A stretch of DNA of 63,333 bases, filler included, from Reclinomonas americana ATCC 50394 (GCA_048213135.1; 20 parts of 20 records of this genome joined end to end with filler, not necessarily neighbours in it); one strand, 5' to 3'; positions 30,229 to 63,333 are shown, counted from the whole stretch's first letter. The notes: generated from the sequence alone by a model not told the origin. Program-made: numbers and translations.

Positions 30229-33192
30229 TCAAGTGCCCGCCGGTGAAAAGAGCGGCTGTGAAGGTGGCGGTGCTTGCGGCGCCTGATCGGTCGACGTGCC
30301 ACGCGGTTGCAACTGACTCAGGTACTGCCGTGTGAACTGCTGTGTACTGCTGCTGCTACCGCTCGATGCACTCTCGCTGTCACGCCCTCGATGTGAGGCC
30401 GCCGCAGCGGCACCATCCCATGGCGACATGGATGGAGCGGGTGCGTCGCGTGCTGCGCCAGCACCAAACCTAAGCTGGGTCGCTTCCTGCGGTGGCGACA
30501 GGGAGGACTCGCGGTGCGGATGATCGACGGCGCCCTGGAAGTAACTCGACGGACGAGTGTCGTCAGTGGCCGACGCCAGTGCCCCGAATGGTGCGCCCTG
30601 TTACGTCCGCACGATAGAGAGTGAGCGACACACACGCACACACACACATGCTTCGACGAGTCACTGTCAAACACACCGGTGGTTTCGAGGCAGAGTCGAA
30701 TCCACGGTAGTTGCTCGACGAGCCGGCACGCAGAACGCTCATATCCGAAGTGCCTACGCGACATGGTTGCTGTTCAGCGCTACCTGATTGCACACACACA
30801 TGCCACACATGCGTCACTCTCACCAATGTCAGAACGCTTGCTGATAAGGGAGACGCTGGGAGTGCCCGCATGACTGCCGAGGGTGCCACTGCTGCCGCCA
30901 CTGCTGCTGCCACCACCACCGATACCCGCATACGAGACGCTCTTGTGAGTGGCGGAGGCGGACGCCGTGAGTGCTCCCGAGCTACCACCAAATTTGGTGC
31001 GTGGCACGTGCGTCTGCAGTGCATGGGTGAGTGCGAGTGTCGAGCACAACGTCAAACCAATGCACGCACACCCACCGTATCATGTGACTGCTCCATGGTG
31101 AATTCGCGTGTGGTGATCATGTGCTTGTTTTGTTGCCGGCTCAAGTGTTGCAGCGCTGCACGCCACGCGTCTCGCGTCAGCAAAATCACCCATGGCCCCC
31201 TCTCTACCTTTTCCCCAACAATACACACCTTGCTCCGACTGCGTCAACCGCTCCTCGGCCTCCTTGAGCAGGTTGGTGCGCATGGTGAGCTCGTCTTGCA
31301 GCTTCTCAATGTCGCGGTCCTTCCAGCTGGACGCTTGCTTCAGCGAGTCCAGCTGCTGCGCGAGACTGGCGTGTTGCGCCTTCAAGTCGTCAATCTGGCT
31401 CTCCTGCCGCTCAATCACGGTCTTCTTCAGCGTGATCTTGTCACGGCGTGCGCGCAGCTCCGCCTGCAGCTTCTGGATAATGTCGTTGCCACGGCGGATC
31501 TCGTTCGACGACTCGCGCAGCTTCTCCTCCAACGCGTGCACATTCGTGCGCAGCATCACTATGGTCTCCTCCAGCGTCGATTTTTGCTCGTCTGTCTGAC
31601 GCGACAGTGCCGCCGTCTTCACCACCAAGTCCTCCTTGTCGAGCACCTGCTGCTCCAGCGCACTCACTGTTGCGCACACGTACATCGTGAGTGACCACAT
31701 GCACCTCAAGAGTACAAGCGCACACACACACAAACCTCGCACGCGCAATTCGCCAATCGTCTTTTCGTGCTCGTGCCGCAGGGTGTCGAGACTGGTGTTC
31801 TGGCTGCGCAGCTTGGCAATGCTGGCGCGGTTGTCTTCCACCTCACTACCGCGGCGCGCATGATTAAGTGTGTGTGGGGGAGAAAAAAGAGAAACGACAC
31901 ACTCCTATTCGGCACACACCGTTCCGACACATCCAGCTTGGCGCCGAGTTCACGACACCGAGCCTCCAGATCCACATTCGCCGTGTACAGCTCCTGCTTG
32001 GTGGTGCGCACGCTCTCGAGATCATGGCGCAGCCGACCGGCTTCCTCACTGAATCGTCGCTGCATGTCCTCGCGTTCCTGCTTGGCCGACGCCTGTGCGT
32101 CGGTCAACTGTCGCAGCGCGTCTGCGCGAAGTGAGTTGACCTCGGCGGCGTGCTGTGTCCTCGTCTCAGCCGTTTCCTGCGCGCACACCCATTCTTAGTG
32201 ACTGCAGAGAGCGGGCATCGGTGCGACCGAGACACACACACACACACCTGCTCGTGATCACGCAGAATGCGATCTAATCTGTCTCGCGCCTCACGCAGCT
32301 CCGCCTCCAGCGTGTGAATGCGCGACGACGATCCATTGTCCAGCGTCTCCAGCTCCTGGTGCGTGTTGAGATACTGATTTTTGAAGTACGCCAGCTGCTC
32401 GGCCATGTGCGCCTGAATCGCTGCATCGTTGCCGTGGCGAAAGTTGAGAATGAGGTGATCCAGATGCTTGAACTGATTGCTCTCAATGATACGCAGGGTC
32501 ACTTTCTGCGCGTCGAGCAGCAGTAGCGCCTGGAATCTGCGCGCGCGGGGTCAGCCACGTCCATGGCAAGTGTCATTCACCGAAATAAAAACAAACCTCG
32601 GCTGCTCCTGAGCATCCGATCGCACACACGACTCGATCAGCTCGAGAAAGTTGGCGGGGAACCGATGAAACTCGACCAGCAGACTCTGCTGCGCCTTCAA
32701 CACCTTGAACTCCTCCTCACTGAGCGCCAACAAGTACACAATGTACGGATCGTCGTCGTTGGTGATCTGCATGTTCAACACCGTCTGCGCATACGAGCCT
32801 GCACACACACACATAGGTCAGCGTCTGGTGGCCGCAGGTGGCGAGCGGATCGACTCACCAGCAGCCTGTCGCCTGACACGAATGGTCAGCCGCTCAATGC
32901 GATCCTCGCGATCCGCCTGCCGCAACCACACCGGCAAGCGACGCTCAAACTCATCCACTGCGCCCTCTCCCGCTGCCGCAGCCGCCGCAGCCGCCGCCGC
33001 ACTCGCATGCCCGCCTCCAGACGACAAGAGCGACGACGCCGACGACGAGGAGAGCACGAGCGGTGACGCCACTTTCGCCTGGTGTCGATGCGGTTGCGAG
33101 CTCATGGGCGATGACAGCGGTGCCGCCCGCGTGAGCAAACTGCCATGCGGGTACGCATTAGACGCTGCTGATGGTGCCGCCGCTGCCGCCAT
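30229..33192 (-). CDS. SASS6: Centriole cartwheel protein SAS-6, multi-exon
   Basis: Head domain ITNDDDPYIVYLLALSEEEFKVLKAQQSLLVEFHRFPANFLELIESC and LRIIESNQFKHLDHLILNFRHGND, followed by a long coiled coil and a low-complexity tail. Confidence 0.93.
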
Positions 33193-42953: not shown

Positions 42954-44633
42954 ATGCGTGCCTCCCTGTTGCTGTTGGTGGCAGTGGTAGCCGTCATTGT
43001 GTGTACACAGTCGGTGGTGGCCGTGCACTACACACCCATCACGCCCGTGTCGGAGGTGTTCACTGACCTTGCACTGGCAAATGGGTGGCCAGTGGCCAAT
43101 GTGCAGCCATTCGTCACGGCACTGAGTGAGCAGGCAAGTCTCTCGCTCTTGTGTGGCATTCGCGTGTGCACGTGTGTGACACTTACATGGGGCCACACAG
43201 TTTGTTGTGCAACTGCGTGATTTGGTCTCCAACTGGGACGTGGTCACATCCGTGGTCAAGCCGGTGCAAGTGCAACGAGCACTGCAGCGACATGTGGCAG
43301 AGAACAAGGTCTCTCTCTTTCGTTTCTCACACACTCGCACACACGCGCTGACATGCAAAATGCAAACAGGTGCTTGTCATCGATGGAGAAATGGTGGAGA
43401 CGTGGCCGCAGTGGGAATCGCTCAAGGTGCTCAAGGATGCCCAGGTAACGTTGCATGTGTGTCGTCGACTTGGTCAGCAGCACGAGGCGCTCCTCTCAAC
43501 TGCGTTGCGCAGAATCCACCCGACTTGTTCCTGACGACCATCAAGACCAGCCCACCCTTCATGCTGGCGTTGCAGGCCAACGAGGGCGTCAACCTGGTGC
43601 GTTGGGGCGTTCCCGTAGTTGCCTGTGTATCGATGAGTGCTCTGTGCACTGACAGGGAGATGGTGGGATGCAGTTGACGGCCGCGGCTGGACTGTGGGCA
43701 CAGACAGAGACGGCGATCTTCCATCGCATCTTCTCCAAGCACTGCAGGGCACCGCGAGCGCCCGGCGCCAAGCCGCCACTGGTGCTGGACATTGGAGTGC
43801 GTTGCTTGCGTGGAGTCTCTCGCTGTAAACTTCCGCTCACCGTTTGTTGTGCAGGCGTTTGTGGGCTACTTTGGCACCATGGCCGCCGTGTACGGCTGCC
43901 GTGTGTACTTTTTCGAGGCCAACCCACAGCTGCATCCGGTCATTCGCCTGTCGCTGGAGCTGAATGGCGTCTCGCACCTGTGCACCATCTTTGAGAACGT
44001 GGTCACCGACAAGAGCGGCGTGACGTACGGCCTGCTGCCGATGGAGGACATTATGTCGATGCGTGTGATGCCGGTGCCCGGCGGCAACGTCACCTCCATT
44101 GCCGTTGGTGATGTGGTTCACGAGGACGTAGTGGCGGCCAAGATTGACGTGGAGGGACACGAATATGGCGTGTTCCGCGGCATGGAGCAGCTGTTCCGCA
44201 ACCACCGCGTGCACAACATGGTGGTGGAGGTCAAGGAGGTTCGTAGACCCTTCCTTCCCTCCTCTGTCTGCCTCTTGTGTCACATCTGTGCTGCAGATCC
44301 CCGAGTCGGACCACAGCCGCAAGGTGAAGTTGGAGTGGTTGTGGTCGCACTTTGAGCGTCAAGGCTCCACTCGCGCAGTCAACTGGCGAGAGCAGTACTA
44401 TACCAAGGTTCGTACCATCCAATCGACGCATGACGTCTTCTTCGTCATTGGCTCACTCGCATGGCTACGTGCGTCGGCGGCTAGGTTCCCGAGAAATTCA
44501 ACCTGGATCCGCGCAATCAATGCAATGTGCGTTCTTCTCCCCGGTGCGCCAGTGGCATGTGTGATTGTGTCAACTGAGGGGCTTGATGCCATGCAGATGT
44601 GCGAAATCGACCGCTCATGGACCACGCTGACTC
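42954..44633 (+). CDS. FkbM-family (Methyltransf_21) SAM-dependent methyltransferase with signal peptide, 3'-partial
   Basis: VLDIG|AFVGYF, YFFEANP and KIDVEGHEYGVFRGM. N-terminal MRASLLLLVAVVAVIVC. Confidence 0.9.
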
Positions 44634-44733: not shown

Positions 44734-46795
44734 GGGCACGAATCTCGGGCTTGAGTCGAGCCCACACCACCATGTACTGGGCCTGCTGCGCCTGCTTGAA
44801 CCTGCATGGTATCAGCGATGAGTGCACGTCTCTCACACAAGTTTCAGCGGTCGCGCGCACCACTGGGCAATAGGAGTCTGTTCGCACAAGCACAGACAAA
44901 CAGCGCATGAGGGACATGAGATACGGTGCATGAAACAGATCAACGACGAACCCGGATGACACCACTGCAAGCACGCATAAAGAAAAAGCACAAAACAAGT
45001 CAATCTACAGCGACAAGCACGATACACAGCGGCAGACTGGCACGAACTCTGCAACACAATAAGTTAGCACATGCACAGAGACACAAACAACGGTTTCATC
45101 ACGAGACGCAACATGGCGGTGGCCAGTATGCCTGTTGCATCTCACACAATCAGTACGCTGAGCAACAAAAGTGGGTGCGGCGAAGAAACGCACCTTGCCA
45201 AAGGGATCCAAGTCGGTGCTCTGCACAGACACAACTCGCGGAGTTGGACGCTGACGAATCTCGTCGACACCCTAAATTCACTCACCTCGCACACGTACTT
45301 GACGCCGTCAATCACCAGCACCATGGCAGTGTGTCCTGCAACGAAGCGTGAGAACCAGATCGACAACATCGACAATAGGTAGTCGAAGCTGTCTCACCAA
45401 ACACGCCGCCTGTAACGTATGCATGTGAGATATTCAAGCGACAGTGACGACATATGTGCACACACACACGCACCAGCGTTCCACATGATCACGGGGTCGA
45501 GACCGTCCAGGCGAGTGATGCCGAGGTAGTCGCCAGACTGCGTCGCGCAGAACAGACGCACAAAGGTGAGCGACAGAGCGAGGTCTTCACTTATACTGCC
45601 TGCCTGCACATGAAACCGAAACTTGGAACTGGTCGAAAGGAATGTTGAGCATGCCCTGGCTGCGTGGGTTGAACACCAGGCCGGCCTTCTCGCGCAGGAA
45701 AGCAATGTTGTCCTTGGGCATATTGCGGCCGGTGAACAGGCGGAAGGTATCCTATTCAGGCGTGCATGAGAGAGAGGAAGGTGATACACAGACGGCGAAT
45801 GACGCACCCAAGCGTCGACCACGGTGCCGAGAATGCCGTCGGGGAAATTGAAGATTTGCAGACCACTCTGCGCACACGGGTGCACAAACGTAAGCGCAGG
45901 GAGGGCAGAGGAGCTCGCACACCACCACGACACCACAAACCTGCAGCACCCAAGCCTTCTCGCCGTCCTTCCAGCTGCCGCCAGTCACTGCGACAAGAAC
46001 AAATGAGCTTGTCCAACAAATGATGCAGAGAATGCACTCGCTCCCAGTACCGTGCTTCTCGCCGTGCGTGAACACATTGTGCACGTGCGCGTGCTCCGGA
46101 GTCGCCAGGAGGTACAGCTGAGAGAGGCGTCAAACACACACGCGCGATACACTCCGGGAAAACCACAGGAGACACACGCAACATCGTCGCAAGTAAGAGT
46201 GCGCGGATGTGCGGCGACATGCGTGAGCTTCCATCCATCGTCCGTCACCGTCAGCGTCGCGTTGTTCTGCGCAAAGCACGGCGCACTCCACGACACAGTG
46301 GCGCTCTAATGCAAGGGAAAAAAGAAAAGCAAGTCAACAAATCGATACACACACAATCACAATCACACACGCACGCAACGACAACAGCCGCGGCCTTGAA
46401 CTGCGGCACCCACGACCAGTACGGCGACGGATCCTTGCCCAGCGTGTCGCTCTCCGAGGCCACAGAGGCGCGTTCCCACAGCGGCACTCGCTCCGAGTCA
46501 TCAATCTACGAGACACTGTGCATGAGCGGCATTGGAAAGCCGACCTGAATGCTGACTGCACACTCACCGGAGTAATGCGCACAGTGCCATCATCCATCAC
46601 CTCCGTGCGCTGAAACTCAGCAAGCACCGCCTCTCGACGACGACGCACAAGCACACTCATATCCTCCTCCGCCTCCGCCTCCATGCCGACATTCACTCGC
46701 AGCGACGACGATGCATCTGCATGCTGCGTGCAGGCGACCAAAACCACAGCAAACAGCACCACAAACAGCAGCAAAAGCCCGCCTGCGCGCTGCAT
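44734..46795 (-). CDS. Secreted uncharacterised protein of a plant/ciliate/amoebal family with a permuted NlpC/P60-like GD...H...E pattern; microexon-rich; 3'-partial
   Basis: Spliced: signal peptide; SWSAPCFAQN; CDD|LYLLATP; NIAFLREKAG; Q|SGDYLGITRLDGLDPVIMWNA|GGVF|GHTAMVLVIDGVKYVCE|STDLDPFGK|AYWPPP|Y|GVIR|TPIAQW|FKQAQQAQYMVVWARLKPEIRA. Confidence 0.75.
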
Positions 46796-46908
46796 GATTC
46801 GTTTGCAAAGACAGTGATAAAACGGGACTTTGATGGGACGTCGTCGAAGTGTTTGCGTGTGTTGTCTCTTCATTGCTTGTGTGTGTGAGAGTCGGTGTTT
46901 CCTTTGAC

Positions 46909-48357
46909 ATGGATCCGCGGGCTTCGCCACTGTCGCCGGCGCAAGTGTTTGGTGGTGGCGTGGACACAGGCTCCTGGGCTGATGAGAGTTTCGCGCGTGC
47001 CTGCCTTCTCACTCTCTTCTTTTTCTGTCTTGCACGCACGTGTGTGTGCGCGTCTCTGCTGGTCAAGCGTGCTGCATCGTCGCCTTCTGTGTTCTCTGTC
47101 TCGCTGTGTCGCCAAAAGTGGGTGTGTGACATTGTGTGATGGCGCGCGCGCGCAGGTTTCGACACATGGTCGGGCGATGGGCACAGTTGCGTCTGTTGCC
47201 TCTCTGTCAACAAGTGCGCTTGAAGCCAGCGCATTTGGCCATTGACTTGCATGTGTGTGTGTGTGTGTGCAAAAAAGGTATCGAGGATCACCCGTATGCT
47301 CGACCGCGCAAGACGCGATACTCGGGAAGCTGGGCCGATGAAGTCGAAGCCGACATTGGTCCGTGAGAGAGTGCGGGGGAGAGCGATGCATGGGATACTC
47401 TCCTTTTGTGCTCATCTGTGTGCCAGGCAATCTCGAGGACTTGTCTTCGCCGGGGCAGGATGATGAGATGCCGCTGCAGCATGTGTGGACGCTGTGGTTT
47501 GATCAGCAGCAGCATCGTGGCATGTCACAGCAGGAGTACGCGCAGGAGCTGGAGAGGTTTCTGTCGGCGCTCTCTTGTTCGCCAGCTCCACGGTGACATC
47601 GCCTCATATCGCCCCGTTCTCTGGCAGAATTGGATCGTTTTCCACCATCTCCGAATTCTGGCGCTACTGGAGTCAGCTGGATGTGGCCGAGCTGCCGTAC
47701 CTGTCCAACTTTCGTGTGTTCAAGTCCGACATTCATCCCTCGTGGGAGGACCCGCAGAACGCCAACGGAGGCCGATGGGTCTGCGTGTGTTTCCGACCGA
47801 TCTCTCATCTCGCAAATAAGAGAGTTGACCCTGTTCCCGCAATGCTGGGCAGATCCTGAAACTTCCGCGTCACCTGCGCGGCGTCGTATGGGAGAAGGCC
47901 ATTATGGGCATGGTGGCGGAGGGATTCCAGAGCGTGCAGGACTTGGTGAGGGGAGCAAGACCACTTCCAACTTGGTCGCATGGGACTTATTGTGTTCTTC
48001 CCTCGTTAGTGTGGTGTGGTGTTCTCTTGCCGTGCACACTTGGACTTTGTGGCGTTCTGGAGCGCCTCGGTGGCCGCGCCGGATGTTGCGCATGCATTTG
48101 CGCGTGAGATTATTACGTATCTCGGTCTCGACTCGCTGCAGTACCAGATTGAGTACCAGACGCACGCAGTTGCGTCGTGCAATTCTATCACTCGTTTTAA
48201 AAGCACACAAACTGAGTTGGCTGACGTCGTTTTCTGTCACAGGATGCCAAGGCCAACGTGGGAACCACCAACCCCCCGGCCACGAAGAAGGCCCTGGAGG
48301 TGGCCCCGATTGCGGAACCGGGCTGGGAAGTGCAGCGTCCACGTCACCAGGAAAAGG
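46909..48357 (+). CDS. eIF4E-family cap-binding protein with N- and C-terminal extensions
   Basis: MPLQHVWTLWFD, IGSFSTISEFWRYW, FKSDIHPSWEDPQNANGGRW, CGVVFSCR and YQTHA|D. The frame is still open at the gap. Confidence 0.92.
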
Positions 48358-48466
48358 TGTGGATTGNNNNNNNNNNNNNNNNNNNNNNNNNNNNNNNNNN
48401 NNNNNNNNNNTTAATTAATTAANNNNNNNNNNNNNNNNNNNNNNNNNNNNNNNNNNNNNNNNNNNN

Positions 48467-53671: not shown

Positions 53672-54909
53672 CTACGAGTAGAAGTTGTTGCGGTTGGAGC
53701 TGCCGATCCGACGCGACAACTCGTTACTGAAGTGCCAGTTGCCGAGCAGATCCTCCAGTCGAATGTGCATGCGATACTTCCAGTAGTGGTACCGATTCGC
53801 TGGGTTGTTGATCTGCTCGCTCTGTGGCGATGGGTGGCGCAGACGTTCGTCACACGCCAGCAGGTCTTGCAGCGGGAAAATGGCCCACATGGACGGCGAC
53901 TGCAAGTGCTGCATGAGAACTCGCTCGGCGACCCACGTCTCGCAGAAGAAGGGCGCGTCGCCGGGGAAACCGAGAATCGAGTTGAAGTAGCGCTGTGACC
54001 GCGCACGATCCTCCTCCCACCACGCTCGCAGTGGCGACGTGTCGTGACTGGAGGTGGTGGCCACTGTGCGGTACGGGTACGTCCACGGCTCGTCGAACTC
54101 CTTCTTGGCGTCGGCCGGCATGCGTTGCACACGCAGACCGAGAATGCCCAAGTCGCTCAGTACCGGAGCGACGCACTTGGGTACCAAGCCGAGATCTTCG
54201 GCGCACACCAGCATCTCTGCAATGAAACAATAAAACAGTGAGCAACAATCACACGCACCACCAAGCTGCTGCAACAAACAACAAAAAAAAACGCAACTGG
54301 AGGCGCGGCGCATCATTGACGTGCGCTCGAATCCCACCTGACCCCACAGATCCTCTTGTCGCTCGAAAAAGTACGAGATACACAGACGGTACAACTCGCG
54401 CTTCCAGTCGGCCGACAGCTCTCCGTACTTGGCGGTCTTCCACAGGGCAAAGCGCGGGTAGAATGCATCGCGGTTTTCGCGATCCTTGTACAGGCACACG
54501 TTGTTGAACACGTTGACGTAGATGCAGCGGCAGGTCTCCGGTGAGAGGCCACTCTTCTCCACAGCACGCTCCGTGCTGAACTCGGGCTTCAGGAATAGCA
54601 CTGTGGCATCGTGCTCCACAAACAGTGGTGGCGCGGCGCCGGCAGACGAAGACGAAGAGGACGATGAAGCCGAACCATCGGCACTGCCAGCTGCGGCTGC
54701 GGCGGCGTCGGAAGCAGACGAGCCACCGGCAGCTGACGACGATGAGGAAGAGGTGGTCGAGGCCGGCGGTGCCACAAACAAGAGATCCCGCACCACAGCG
54801 GCCTCCGTGTCGCCCAACAGGTGTCGCAAGAGGCCAAGTCGAATCGAGGGCACTGCACGCACAAAACATGAGAGAATGCACCGTGAGTTATCGGGCCAGG
54901 ACCAAGAGC

Positions 54910-55004
<95 letters not shown>

Positions 55005-56324
55005 CNNNNNNNNNNNNNNNNNNNNNNNNNNNNNNNNNNNNNNNNNNNNTTAATTAATTAANNNNNNNNNNNNNNNNNNNNNNNNNNNNNNNNNNNNNNN
55101 NNNNNAATGGCGGAGCCGGCGCCGCGGAACGTCAGCGCGCCGAGGTTGTTGGGGAAGCGGAAAGGCGTGGTCTGCATGGCGATCTTGCGGCACGGCGCGC
55201 CGCCACCGGGAGCCGCCAAGTCCGCGTCCAGCACGCGATCCTCGCCGGCCTCCCACATGCGCTCACGACCCTCGTTATCGATCAGCACAAACTTGTATCG
55301 CACCGGCAGCTCATCGCGCGCCACCTGGAAGCGCGTGGTCCACTGGAACACCGCCGCGGCGTCCGCCTGCTGCTCACACACCATCGGTACTGCACGAGCG
55401 AGATCCCACTCGCCGAGTGCCCGCGACGAGCCGATCAGCACCACCGAATCGGTGGGTGCCACGCGCCACGCCTCCACGCGCACCTCGACCTCGGTGACAC
55501 TCGGATCCCAGTCGGCCGACGGCACATCGGCCAGCGACGGTCTCAGCGGCACCGCGTCGGCCTCGCGTCGGAAGAGCACTCCTCGGAAGGCCGCACTCGA
55601 CACAATGCCCTGATCGACACTTGCCGCCGCTCGCCACAGATCCACGCTGCCCAAATGAAGCAACCGATCGTGCTCTGCGCTGTGCAGCAGCGGAAGCACA
55701 AGTTCTCTGCGCAGACACGACGACGACATCAGTGCGACATGTCGCTCACAAAACGAACTTGCACTTCAACGTTGCGGGTAGTGCGATGCGTGAGGAGACC
55801 AGAGAATGCGTGTGTGTCGCGCGGGAAAGAAGGGGATGGGAAGAGAGAGCGAGTGGAAGATTGCATGAGCGGCTCTCTGCATCACAAAAGTGCGAGAGGC
55901 GCACACAAAGGCAAACAGAGCAGTCTGTGTGCGTGTGTCTGTGTGTGTACACAAGAGCAAAGACAAGTCACTCACCGCACACCGGTCTCGGCCTTGATCG
56001 AGTTGGAGATGTGTGGGTTGTACACAACGTATTTGAAGCGCAACAGTGCCGACGAGTGGCGATGCTTGTCGTCGGCGATCGAAGTCAGTCGCGCTGTGCC
56101 CTCCCAGCACCCGTCGCGGTATCGCAGTTGGAAGCCGTTGGTGTGCTCCCAAGAGCCAAGCGACTCCTGCGTGTGTGTGCGAGAAGGAGAGAGAGAGAGA
56201 GTGAGTGCATGATTGACTAATGCGGTGGTGGTGTGGAGCGGCACGCAACATCACTGCCGACGACAAAGCACAGCTCGCCAAAGGCCGCTGGCACCTCGCT
56301 CACACGAAAGCTGACGCGAACCAT
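53672..56324 (-). CDS. DPE2: 4-alpha-glucanotransferase DPE2 (two CBM20 + GH77), middle missing in the gap
   Basis: CBM20 motifs VVGSD|ESLGSW...FKYVV and LIGSSRALGEWD...RYKFV...WEAGEDR; FRGAGSAI; MLVCAEDLGLVP, GLRVQRMP, SSHDTSPLRAWWEED and INNPANRYHYWKYRMH. Confidence 0.95.
54913..55003. repeat. (CA)n microsatellite in a DPE2 intron
   Basis: Directly visible. Confidence 0.95.
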
Positions 56325-61744: not shown

Positions 61745-63333
61745 ATGTGGATTCTCGCGTGGTTCAGTCAGTTCTGGGTGCTATGCATCAAGCACTTTTG
61801 CGTGTGGGTGGGTTCCTTGTGCTGCTGATGCACACGCACTCTTTCTCTCTCACAATGTCTGACTTATTCTTTCTGCGGGGTCGGAGTAGACACGCAGCCT
61901 GAAAGTGACACTGGCGCACCTCATAGCCCCCGTCTTCATCATCTTCCTCATCTTCCTGATGCAAAAGGTGCGTGTGTGTGTGTGTGTGTTGACACAAAAG
62001 ATCAATGATGAGAATGCCAACACACACTGCTATTGCAAGATCAATCCCACGCGCGGTGCACAAGTCGACTCGGTGACTCCGGCCGACATTGGCACTCTGC
62101 AACAGTGCAAAGTTGCGTTGTCTCTCGCCGCCTGCTGACTTGGCGGGTGACACAGCAAGTAAAGTAAGTACCACGTGCAGGAGGCCAACTGCGTGACAGT
62201 GGCCTATGCGCCCGACGGCGACGCAAGAGTGACAGACACGATGCACTGGCTGCAGCAGGTCACTGGACTGACCGTGGCGGAGCGCAGACGCAGTCAGGCG
62301 CTCGATGGTGCGTGGTTTTTGTGTGTTGTATCAGTGTGTGTGTGCTTGTCGCGGAGCCCCGACGAATGAGTGTTGCAGATCCGACTCCGCGAGGCCTCGT
62401 CGGCTTCTCCAGTGAGACCGAGTTGAAAGACTTTATGAAGTTGTGTATGTGTGTGTGTGTGTGTGGAAGTGCTCCGGCGTGTACTCACCGTGGTCGACTA
62501 CATGCACAGAAAGAACCAGGGGCCGACCTATGTTGGTGAGTGCATGTGTGAATCGTCTCTGTCATTATGTGGCAGTTTAACATCTTTCTTGTCTCCGTGT
62601 ACGTGTGTGGTGCAGGCCTGCTGTTCTCGTGGGTCATGGAGTTGCCGGTGGTCACCTCCGTCTTCAATGTCACGAACGACCGCACGCCACAGGCATTTGT
62701 GTCGCTTGCCGAGGCGCACATTCTCAAGTACAGCCAAAACAACGTGTGCAACGCCGGTGCGTCGCCTGCTTTCAATCTTCATCTGTGCTACCGCTCATTG
62801 TGCTGGCTGTGACAGCTCCTGGCAACTGCCGCATATCGCTGCACGTGGAGGGCTTCCCGGAGATTGACGCGAGACCTATTGATCGCGATAGTTGCGCTGC
62901 GCACGCCCCTCATCGCTCGTGGCTCTTTTTCCGTGACTTACTGTTCGTATGTGTGTGTGCAGTTGTTGCAAAGGGTGGCGCGGGTTGGTTCATCACCGCG
63001 CCCATGTTCAGTCTGGTGCTGATTCTTCACATGGTTCGTTACCGTTTACCGCACGCTGCTTCCCACTCTGCCTCCTCACCCACTCACACTTGCGCGTGAG
63101 ACAGGTGGTTGCCGAGAAGCAAAGCGGGCTGCGACAGGGGTTGGCCATGATGGGACTTTTGGTGTGTATTTGGGTGAAGCCCTATCTTATTGTTGTCATT
63201 TGTTCTCACGTCACGTGCCCTGCTCTCGGCGACACAATTCAGGATGGCCCCATGTGGTCCACGTGGTTGTTGTTTGGCTCCTTTATCGGAGTCCTCGGTC
63301 AGTTTTTCTCACAATCACGTGTGTGTGTGTTTG
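61745..63333 (+). CDS. ABC transporter subfamily A, N-terminal part
   Basis: QFWVLCIKHFCVW|TRSLKVTLAHLIAPVFIIFL; CVTVAYAP; VVAEKQSGLRQGLAMMGLL|DGPMWSTW (ABCA ExExxLRxxMxxMGL motif). Confidence 0.88.

Follow-up and report, generated by a model that had tools for sequence, protein, structure and literature searches.

In the literature searched, only two genes, Arabidopsis APC11 and Fusarium CYP621A, are described as having a spliceosomal exon of a single nucleotide. The APC11 exon of Arabidopsis thaliana is constitutive, lies between two canonical spliceosomal introns and is needed to keep the reading frame (Guo & Liu, 2015; PMC4674806). Its authors favour intron definition, with both introns taken out in sequence ('recursive' removal), cite a potato invertase exon of 9 nucleotides (nt) for which the downstream intron leaves first, and summarize recursive splicing at ratchet points as exons of 0 nt (AG/GT; slashes mark exon-intron borders throughout). 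In the CYP621A case, an apparent 139-nt intron, more than twice the species median of 56 nt, holds an AG-N-GT; the exon is conserved in 20 orthologues, was checked against an intronless relative, was confirmed by SRA reads and is named by its authors as the second example (Nelson & Syed, 2026; PMC12940212). The accessible part of MEPDB cites APC11 alone as a one-nucleotide case. Here we describe a candidate for a third such exon, the A at position 45048 on the minus strand of a 63,333-base stretch from Reclinomonas americana ATCC 50394 (GCA_048213135.1), which lies within an intron-rich gene for a YiiX-like hydrolase. The window, i.e. the whole stretch analysed, consists of 20 contigs (1.4-8.7 kb) with N44-TTAATTAATTAA-N44 spacers, a linker with stops in all six frames, between them; these contigs form an unplaced bin, so that adjacency within the window does not imply linkage. 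The candidate sits in the contig 44734-48366.

This A is probably a real, constitutive one-nucleotide exon, whose flanking introns would be removed one after the other. On the minus strand, the junction region reads ...CCACCGCCAT/GTTGCGT...CTAAC...TTGCAG/A/GTTCGT...TTGAC...TTGCAG/TGGTGTCATCCGG/GTTCGT..., so that a single A separates two complete GT-AG introns of normal size, each with a branch-point motif (YTNAY, at 15 and 35 nt). The exon had been proposed in an earlier note on this DNA, whose coordinates and strings were all reproduced: the A at 45048, the introns of 64 and 83 nt with their donors, acceptors and branch motifs, and the neighbouring exons of 12 nt (45398-45409), 13 nt (44952-44964) and 17 nt (44861-44877), to which one of 19 nt (45113-45131) can be added. 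Its statement that skipping the A shifts the frame is borne out as well. The A gives the reading AYWPPPYGVIRTPIAQWFKQAQQAQYMVVWARLKPEIRA; if it is left out, the frame is shifted, yet stays free of stop codons up to the contig end at 44734. The gene model, built by coordinates, starts with an ATG at 46795 and runs through 16 exons (E1-E16) and 15 introns (I1-I15) to the contig end, as follows.

45623-46795, minus strand: E1-E7 (228, 126, 123, 67, 47, 60 and 129 nt), hydrophobic N-terminus and N-terminal region without detectable relatives, from the gene model
45474-45537, minus strand: E8, 64 nt, SGDYLGITRLDGLDPVIMWNA, start of the Peptidase_C92-like domain; its GD motif aligns to the invariant G24-D25 of the family
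45398-45409, minus strand: E9, a 12-nt microexon, GGVF, with GT-AG introns of 64 and 62 nt on either side
45286-45335, minus strand: E10, 50 nt, GHTAMVLVIDGVKYVCE, carrying the family His and Glu, aligned to the invariant H49 and E64
45194-45220, minus strand: E11, 27 nt, STDLDPFGK; donor score 9.7, acceptor score 10.6
45113-45131, minus strand: E12, 19 nt, AYWPPP and the first base (T) of the Tyr codon; acceptor score 8.2
45049-45112, minus strand: I12, 64 nt, with GTTGCGT donor and TTGCAG acceptor in the sequence
45063-45067, minus strand: CTAAC, branch-point-like motif of I12 found by motif scan, its A 15 nt from the 3' splice site
45048, minus strand: candidate one-nucleotide exon A (E13), middle base of the Tyr codon T/A/T, based on its anatomy and on the net extra base needed by profile homology
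44965-45047, minus strand: I13, 83 nt, with GTTCGT donor (also that of I14) and TTGCAG acceptor in the sequence
44999-45003, minus strand: TTGAC, branch-point-like motif of I13 found by motif scan, its A 35 nt from the 3' end and followed by a T-rich tract
44952-44964, minus strand: E14, 13 nt, final T of the Tyr codon, then GVIR; the VIR of this frame adds about 3 bits to the profile score
44861-44877, minus strand: E15, 17 nt, TPIAQ plus W; TP..W aligns to the family TPL..W
44734-44801, minus strand: E16, at least 68 nt and cut by the contig end, FKQAQQAQYMVVWARLKPEIRA, aligned to the family GKYVVKRL region

The 15 introns are 62, 74, 65, 63, 73, 56, 85, 64, 62, 65, 62, 64, 83, 74 and 59 nt long and every one is GT-AG; a YTNAY motif lies 10-39 nt from the 3' end in 14 of them. 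Intron density is one per ~70 coding nt overall, with eight introns within the last ~210 coding nt. I13 has a second branch candidate, TTTAT, at 13 nt, and its layout of TTGAC followed by a T tract is also seen in I2, there at 28 nt. Elsewhere in the gene (region 45941-46117, minus strand), the 63-nt intron I4 is a multiple of three without an in-frame stop, and its retention would leave the frame open.

The lengths of the other introns on the contig, 13 from the hydrolase gene and five from a neighbouring eIF4E gene, all fall between 56 and 85 nt (18 of 18; mean 67.5, standard deviation 7.0). If I12, the A and I13 are merged, the resulting intron measures 148 nt, more than 11 standard deviations from this mean. 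The eIF4E gene (47270-48366, plus strand), which runs off the contig end, has three exons that match PF01652 colinearly (profile positions 1-24, 27-77 and 111-152; best E-value 7e-15) and five introns of 68, 71, 74, 64 and 74 nt, each with a branch motif. The splice sites of I12 and I13 were scored by position weight matrices with both introns held out of training, giving 1.9 for the donor and 11.1 for the acceptor of I12, and 4.8 and 5.9, respectively, for those of I13. Validated sites scored 1.7-10.6 (donors) and 3.4-11.3 (acceptors) in training, and -2.6 to 9.6 and -1.0 to 9.4, respectively, in leave-one-out scoring. All four sites are within the range of validated sites and the I12 acceptor is second only to one training acceptor (11.3). 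The donor heptamer of I12, GTTGCGT, recurs in three other validated introns (I2, I3 and intron 5 of the eIF4E gene) and is enriched in the window (37 occurrences versus 15.3 expected; none of 100 shuffles reached 37). GTTGCGT, with its T at intron position +3, is a recurrent variant of the 5' splice site: four of the 20 introns on the contig start with it and two more with GTTCGT. A heptamer scan gave the following examples.

45106-45112, 46176-46182 and 46373-46379, minus strand; 48169-48175, plus strand: GTTGCGT

We found no paralogy among the introns I12-I14 that would point to tandem duplication or an introner origin, their pairwise scores (18-26) being within the shuffled null (mean 12.5, maximum 29).

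The scan for YAG-N-GT patterns that the earlier note had suggested was run within the window. The bare motif, as YAG-N-GTKSGT, is not above chance, with six matches versus 5.73 expected (45 of 100 shuffles reached six), but the full context is seen only at 45048, which alone among the seven sites examined combines a strong acceptor and a branch motif with a donor 64 nt upstream and an acceptor 83 nt downstream. Counting both strands, the window has two strong acceptors with a donor only 1 nt further on, and the reversed control has none. When 148-nt introns of random, intron-like composition were simulated, 15 of 200,000 contained a one-nucleotide split of equal quality, and a frame-restoring microexon of any length up to 19 nt was present in 252 of 200,000. 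At 62335 (plus strand), a strong acceptor, one base and a donor-like site also follow one another (..TGTATCAG/T/GTGTGTGTG..); this site lacks both a branch motif and an acceptor at intron distance downstream, and is for that reason probably a GT-repeat artefact.

The second line of evidence is the homology of the encoded protein on both sides of the A. YiiX and YaeF are permuted papain-like hydrolases. Two local hidden Markov models (HMMs) of relatives of PF05708 were used, one of 150 domains and one of 251 sequences; the relatives comprised 120 YiiX-like proteins among the matches listed, 80 loci from named genomes, PF05708 matches from 5+251+251 genomes and 101 proteins seeded from an Acidobacteriota member. 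The spliced model with the A scored 17.8 bits (150-domain HMM) and 16.9 bits (251-sequence HMM), the best of 2000 residue shuffles reaching 4.3 bits; these local scores cover approximately the first 73-83 profile positions only, and the Pfam gathering threshold of 27 bits refers to Pfam's own model. The alignment runs from the GD motif through His and Glu to V..TP..W and Y.V, with SGD, GHT and VCES aligned, in family order, to the family-invariant G24-D25, H49 and E64. The segment VIRTPIAQW...YMVVWARL, which aligns to the family V..TPL..W and Y.V.R segment, contributes ~9-12 bits. E. coli YiiX (b3937) gave a BLASTP alignment that spans E10-E16, including the junction (25.4 bits, E-value 8e-4 in a one-subject search, 15 of 55 residues identical). 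By these alignments, the encoded domain is the N-terminal half of the Peptidase_C92 (PF05708) domain; the contig ends at 44734, ahead of the region of the catalytic Cys (YCSE motif, C128 of YiiX). The pattern YWP..G...T...W...A..A...V....L, given in the earlier note as that of the family, was not found as written and YWP is no feature of the Peptidase_C92 profile, although the downstream part (V..TP...W....Y.V) matches that profile, with TP..W and Y.V matching the YiiX family. The gene product is predicted to have a hydrophobic N-terminus, an orphan N-terminal region and a YiiX-like hydrolase domain, and is probably secreted; the N-terminal extension, with its hydrophobic start, comprises ~260 residues.

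The GD...H...E frame (E8-E10) and the V..TP..W...Y.V frame (E14-E16) are parts of a single protein domain, with a one-base offset between them. With zero or two extra nucleotides, the spliced model dropped to 5.5-5.6 bits (150-domain HMM) or 7.6-7.9 bits (251-sequence HMM) and the alignment stopped at the Glu. It is from this drop, to 5.5-7.9 bits, that the 9-12 bits added by E15-E16 (TPIAQWFKQAQQAQYMVVWARL) in the frame of the earlier note follow. As judged by the profiles, a net gain of one base is needed between the upstream and downstream parts of the domain. Around the E12 donor, both E14 splice sites and the E15 acceptor, no canonical GT, GC or AG one or two bases away would restore the frame. 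A narrow enterobacterial YiiX HMM was also tried as a frame test and set aside as too weak (6.3 bits with the A versus 2.1 bits without it).

Searches for relatives of individual exons gave little. Eight single exons of the hydrolase gene had no meaningful match in Pfam, and no paralogue of the gene was found within the window. No homologue of E7 was found by a word-based search; when E7 was compared exhaustively with 1.84 billion proteins by phmmer, the one match was a junk open reading frame (ORF) of tandem repeats and no relative, and the ESM Atlas search with E7 gave noise below 0.9. A metagenome scan with the read-through of E4, its intron and E5 matched 592 pattern stretches, with no relative among them, and PDB sequence searches with E8 and with the ORF that holds E10 gave nothing or chance matches at an E-value of 0.7.

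Several points weigh against a one-nucleotide exon and are best taken together with the alternatives that they favour. The profile is indifferent to the exact position of the extra base: an N placed anywhere upstream of the E14 Val codon gives 16.3-19.1 bits, and only placements after this Val lose ~3 bits, so that the profile cannot tell a one-nucleotide exon from a base missing in E12. The contig, 3.6 kb long and unplaced, comes from a bin of 20 small contigs joined by linkers, and its accuracy at the level of single bases is uncertain; the gene is truncated, a look-up of sequencing runs listed none for the locus, and no orthologue or paralogue of its own exons came from the searches with E7 and E4-E5 or from the window. 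The donor of I12 is low by weight matrix (1.9). A base might have been lost in E12 or E14, by a deletion in assembly or base calling or by a frameshift in a dead or allelic copy, with 45112-44965 a single 148-nt intron and its AG-A-GT without function. The absence of a stop before the contig end in the frame without the A is compatible with such an error, as is the slightly atypical codon usage of E12-E14. We nevertheless regard it as unlikely, because it calls for three improbable things at once, namely an indel within ~32 nt, a 148-nt intron where all 18 others are 56-85 nt, and a chance internal acceptor, branch site and donor that happen to give two introns of normal size, as in only 15 of the 200,000 simulated introns. 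The other 15 exons, moreover, are open and all splice sites are canonical, which speaks against this reading.

The block of E12, the A and E14 could also lie outside the main mRNA, or be an alternative cassette, with E11 joined to E15 over a 316-nt intron to give ...VCESTDLDPFGK-TPIAQW.... This join is in frame, because E12, the A and E14 add up to 33 nt (19+1+13); it is free of stops and scores 23.7 bits on the bacterial profile, versus 19.6 bits for the full model. The family loop at this point has 3-5 residues in 142 of 150 members and, with the block left out, the spacing of DPFGK-TP equals that of the family GPVKY-TP. The 11 codons of the block have a mean log2 relative synonymous codon usage of 0.01 versus 0.28 and a GC content at third codon positions of 0.55 versus 0.76; synonymous scores as low were seen in 3.7% of 300 in-frame windows of the same gene with training on seven other ORFs, and in 0% with self-biased training. 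In a crude log-likelihood test, the 33 nt looked like the intron null. We take this codon usage as a weak caveat; many bases of the block fall inside splice-site consensus positions, and codon usage singled out no frame for E12. A 316-nt intron, however, would be more than 35 standard deviations above the mean of the 18 validated introns, and its interior holds three acceptors that score 8.1-9.8, each with a donor within 1-19 nt and with normal intron spacing. Random 316-nt introns could be tiled in this way, into four normal introns, in one of 100,000 cases, and under intron-definition splicing the interior sites would be used. Insertions of 10-13 residues at the same place, in eight of the 150 family members, also speak against omission of the block, which we consider quite improbable. 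Finally, splicing may take some other path, by intron retention or through weaker sites, e.g. a 5-nt exon AGTTC with its donor at 45043, or the acceptor at 45004, a sixth strong one (score 8.6). When all stop-free, frame-consistent paths from E10 to E15 were enumerated, through sites no weaker than the poorest ones in training, 544 were obtained for introns of 40-450 nt and 37 for introns of 50-90 nt. Among these 37, the model path has the top summed splice score, 80.2 versus 76.0 for the runner-up, and the others keep sequence bounded by strong sites or truncate the conserved E10; use of the 45004 acceptor would create a 43-nt intron without a branch motif, shorter than all 18 validated introns. 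This last alternative appears very improbable. Splice-site anatomy, intron lengths and the homology on both sides that needs a net extra base make the one-nucleotide exon, as first proposed, the best explanation, although homology cannot place the base and an in-frame skip of E12, the A and E14 exists.

Bacterial relatives either lack this loop or carry an insertion there that is unrelated. In one Peptidase_C92 subfamily from Acidobacteriota (~300 amino acids, with an N-terminal extension), the loop insertion ES-NANESYFGDPNPG-V is conserved and takes exactly the position of TDLDPFGKAYWPPPYG in the eukaryotic gene. The likeness to ES-TDLDPFGKAYWPPPYG-V was rejected as evidence and is analogy only, since the subfamily HMM gives 2.8 bits overall and ~0 bits for the domain.

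With introns of 56-85 nt, splicing here would most simply proceed by intron definition, each intron being recognized as a unit, so that exon length would have no lower limit. U1 bound at the donor of I13 (AGA/GTTCGT) would overlap with the 3' splice-site factors at the AG of I12 (TTGCAG/A), and the two introns would for this reason probably be removed sequentially. Either order of removal would give CCAT-A-TGG, with the codon TAT (Tyr); the site usable after the first step would be ATA/GTTCGT if I12 leaves first and TTGCAG/AT if I13 does. The layout would probably have arisen by dense intron gain and, given the eight introns in the final ~210 coding nt, insertion of two of them at a distance of 1 nt would not be unlikely a priori. 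On the wider proposition, that intron definition in this lineage sets no minimum to exon size and that dense intron gain has cut the loop region of the hydrolase gene into constitutive exons of 27, 19, 1, 13 and 17 nt, our opinion is evenly balanced. The earlier note had called one-nucleotide exons very rare (e.g. APC11) and taken them to imply intron definition; the two genes in the literature searched agree with the rarity, while intron definition is, for the present locus, a suggested mode of splicing.

The remaining contigs hold a few other features. A candidate microexon of 14 nt (32859-32872, within 32785-32931, minus strand), with predicted introns of 59 and 60-74 nt, has as its sole basis the splice-site matrices trained on the hydrolase gene. 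Long ORFs (200-529 amino acids) on six separate contigs between 8945 and 19832 all encode WD40 beta-propellers and resemble a family of multiple copies left unplaced by the assembler. Two adjacent contigs carry a C-terminal part of a glycoside hydrolase 77 (4-alpha-glucanotransferase; 53675-55003, minus strand) and a CBM20 starch-binding domain (55106-55765, minus strand), which may be pieces of one gene. An ORF at 43678-44352 (plus strand) has an FkbM-type methyltransferase domain (PF05050, E-value 2.4e-10).

Were the A to result from an assembly error or belong to a skipped block, the finding would be an ordinary one. If it is real, it would be the third spliceosomal one-nucleotide exon, in a gene family unlinked to APC11 and CYP621A, and a natural substrate for studying the order in which two abutting introns are removed. 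Such a case, in an unrelated gene and amid several microexons, would show that this layout emerges in any setting of short and dense introns that are defined as units; if this holds, exons of one to a few nucleotides would be recurrent in such genomes and overlooked by annotation pipelines. Gene finders that forbid very short exons would mis-frame these genes, and in the hydrolase gene the merging of both introns would truncate or frameshift the product.

With YiiX and the other Peptidase_C92 (PF05708) proteins, the hydrolase gene shares the N-terminal half of the domain, in the order GD, H, E, V..TP..W, Y.V.R, whereas it differs from them in being eukaryotic and intron-rich, with an N-terminal extension of ~260 residues and a loop insertion of 13-16 residues after the Glu. 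Placozoan mitochondrial cox1 reportedly has an exon of a single base pair, flanked by self-splicing or trans-spliced introns; the likeness is confined to the one-base exon, cox1 being organellar and not spliceosomal. Ratchet points, which serve very long introns, contribute no nucleotide to the mRNA. The hydrolase gene resembles them in having an acceptor and a donor that almost adjoin and in the stepwise removal suggested here, but it keeps one nucleotide and both of its introns are short. The parallel with CYP621A lies in the logic of an over-long apparent intron, in a base that forms the middle position of a codon and in phases that are incompatible without it; in CYP621A, however, the codon belongs to the conserved PKG motif, whereas the Tyr codon of the hydrolase gene, known from genomic sequence alone, lies in a lineage-specific loop. 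APC11, whose exon was shown by cDNA and GFP-fusion assays in Arabidopsis and rice, likewise differs from the present case, to date a matter of DNA sequence, and belongs to another gene family and another lineage. As in APC11, nevertheless, a lone nucleotide lies between canonical introns, the reading frame depends on it, and the mechanism that we propose is the same.

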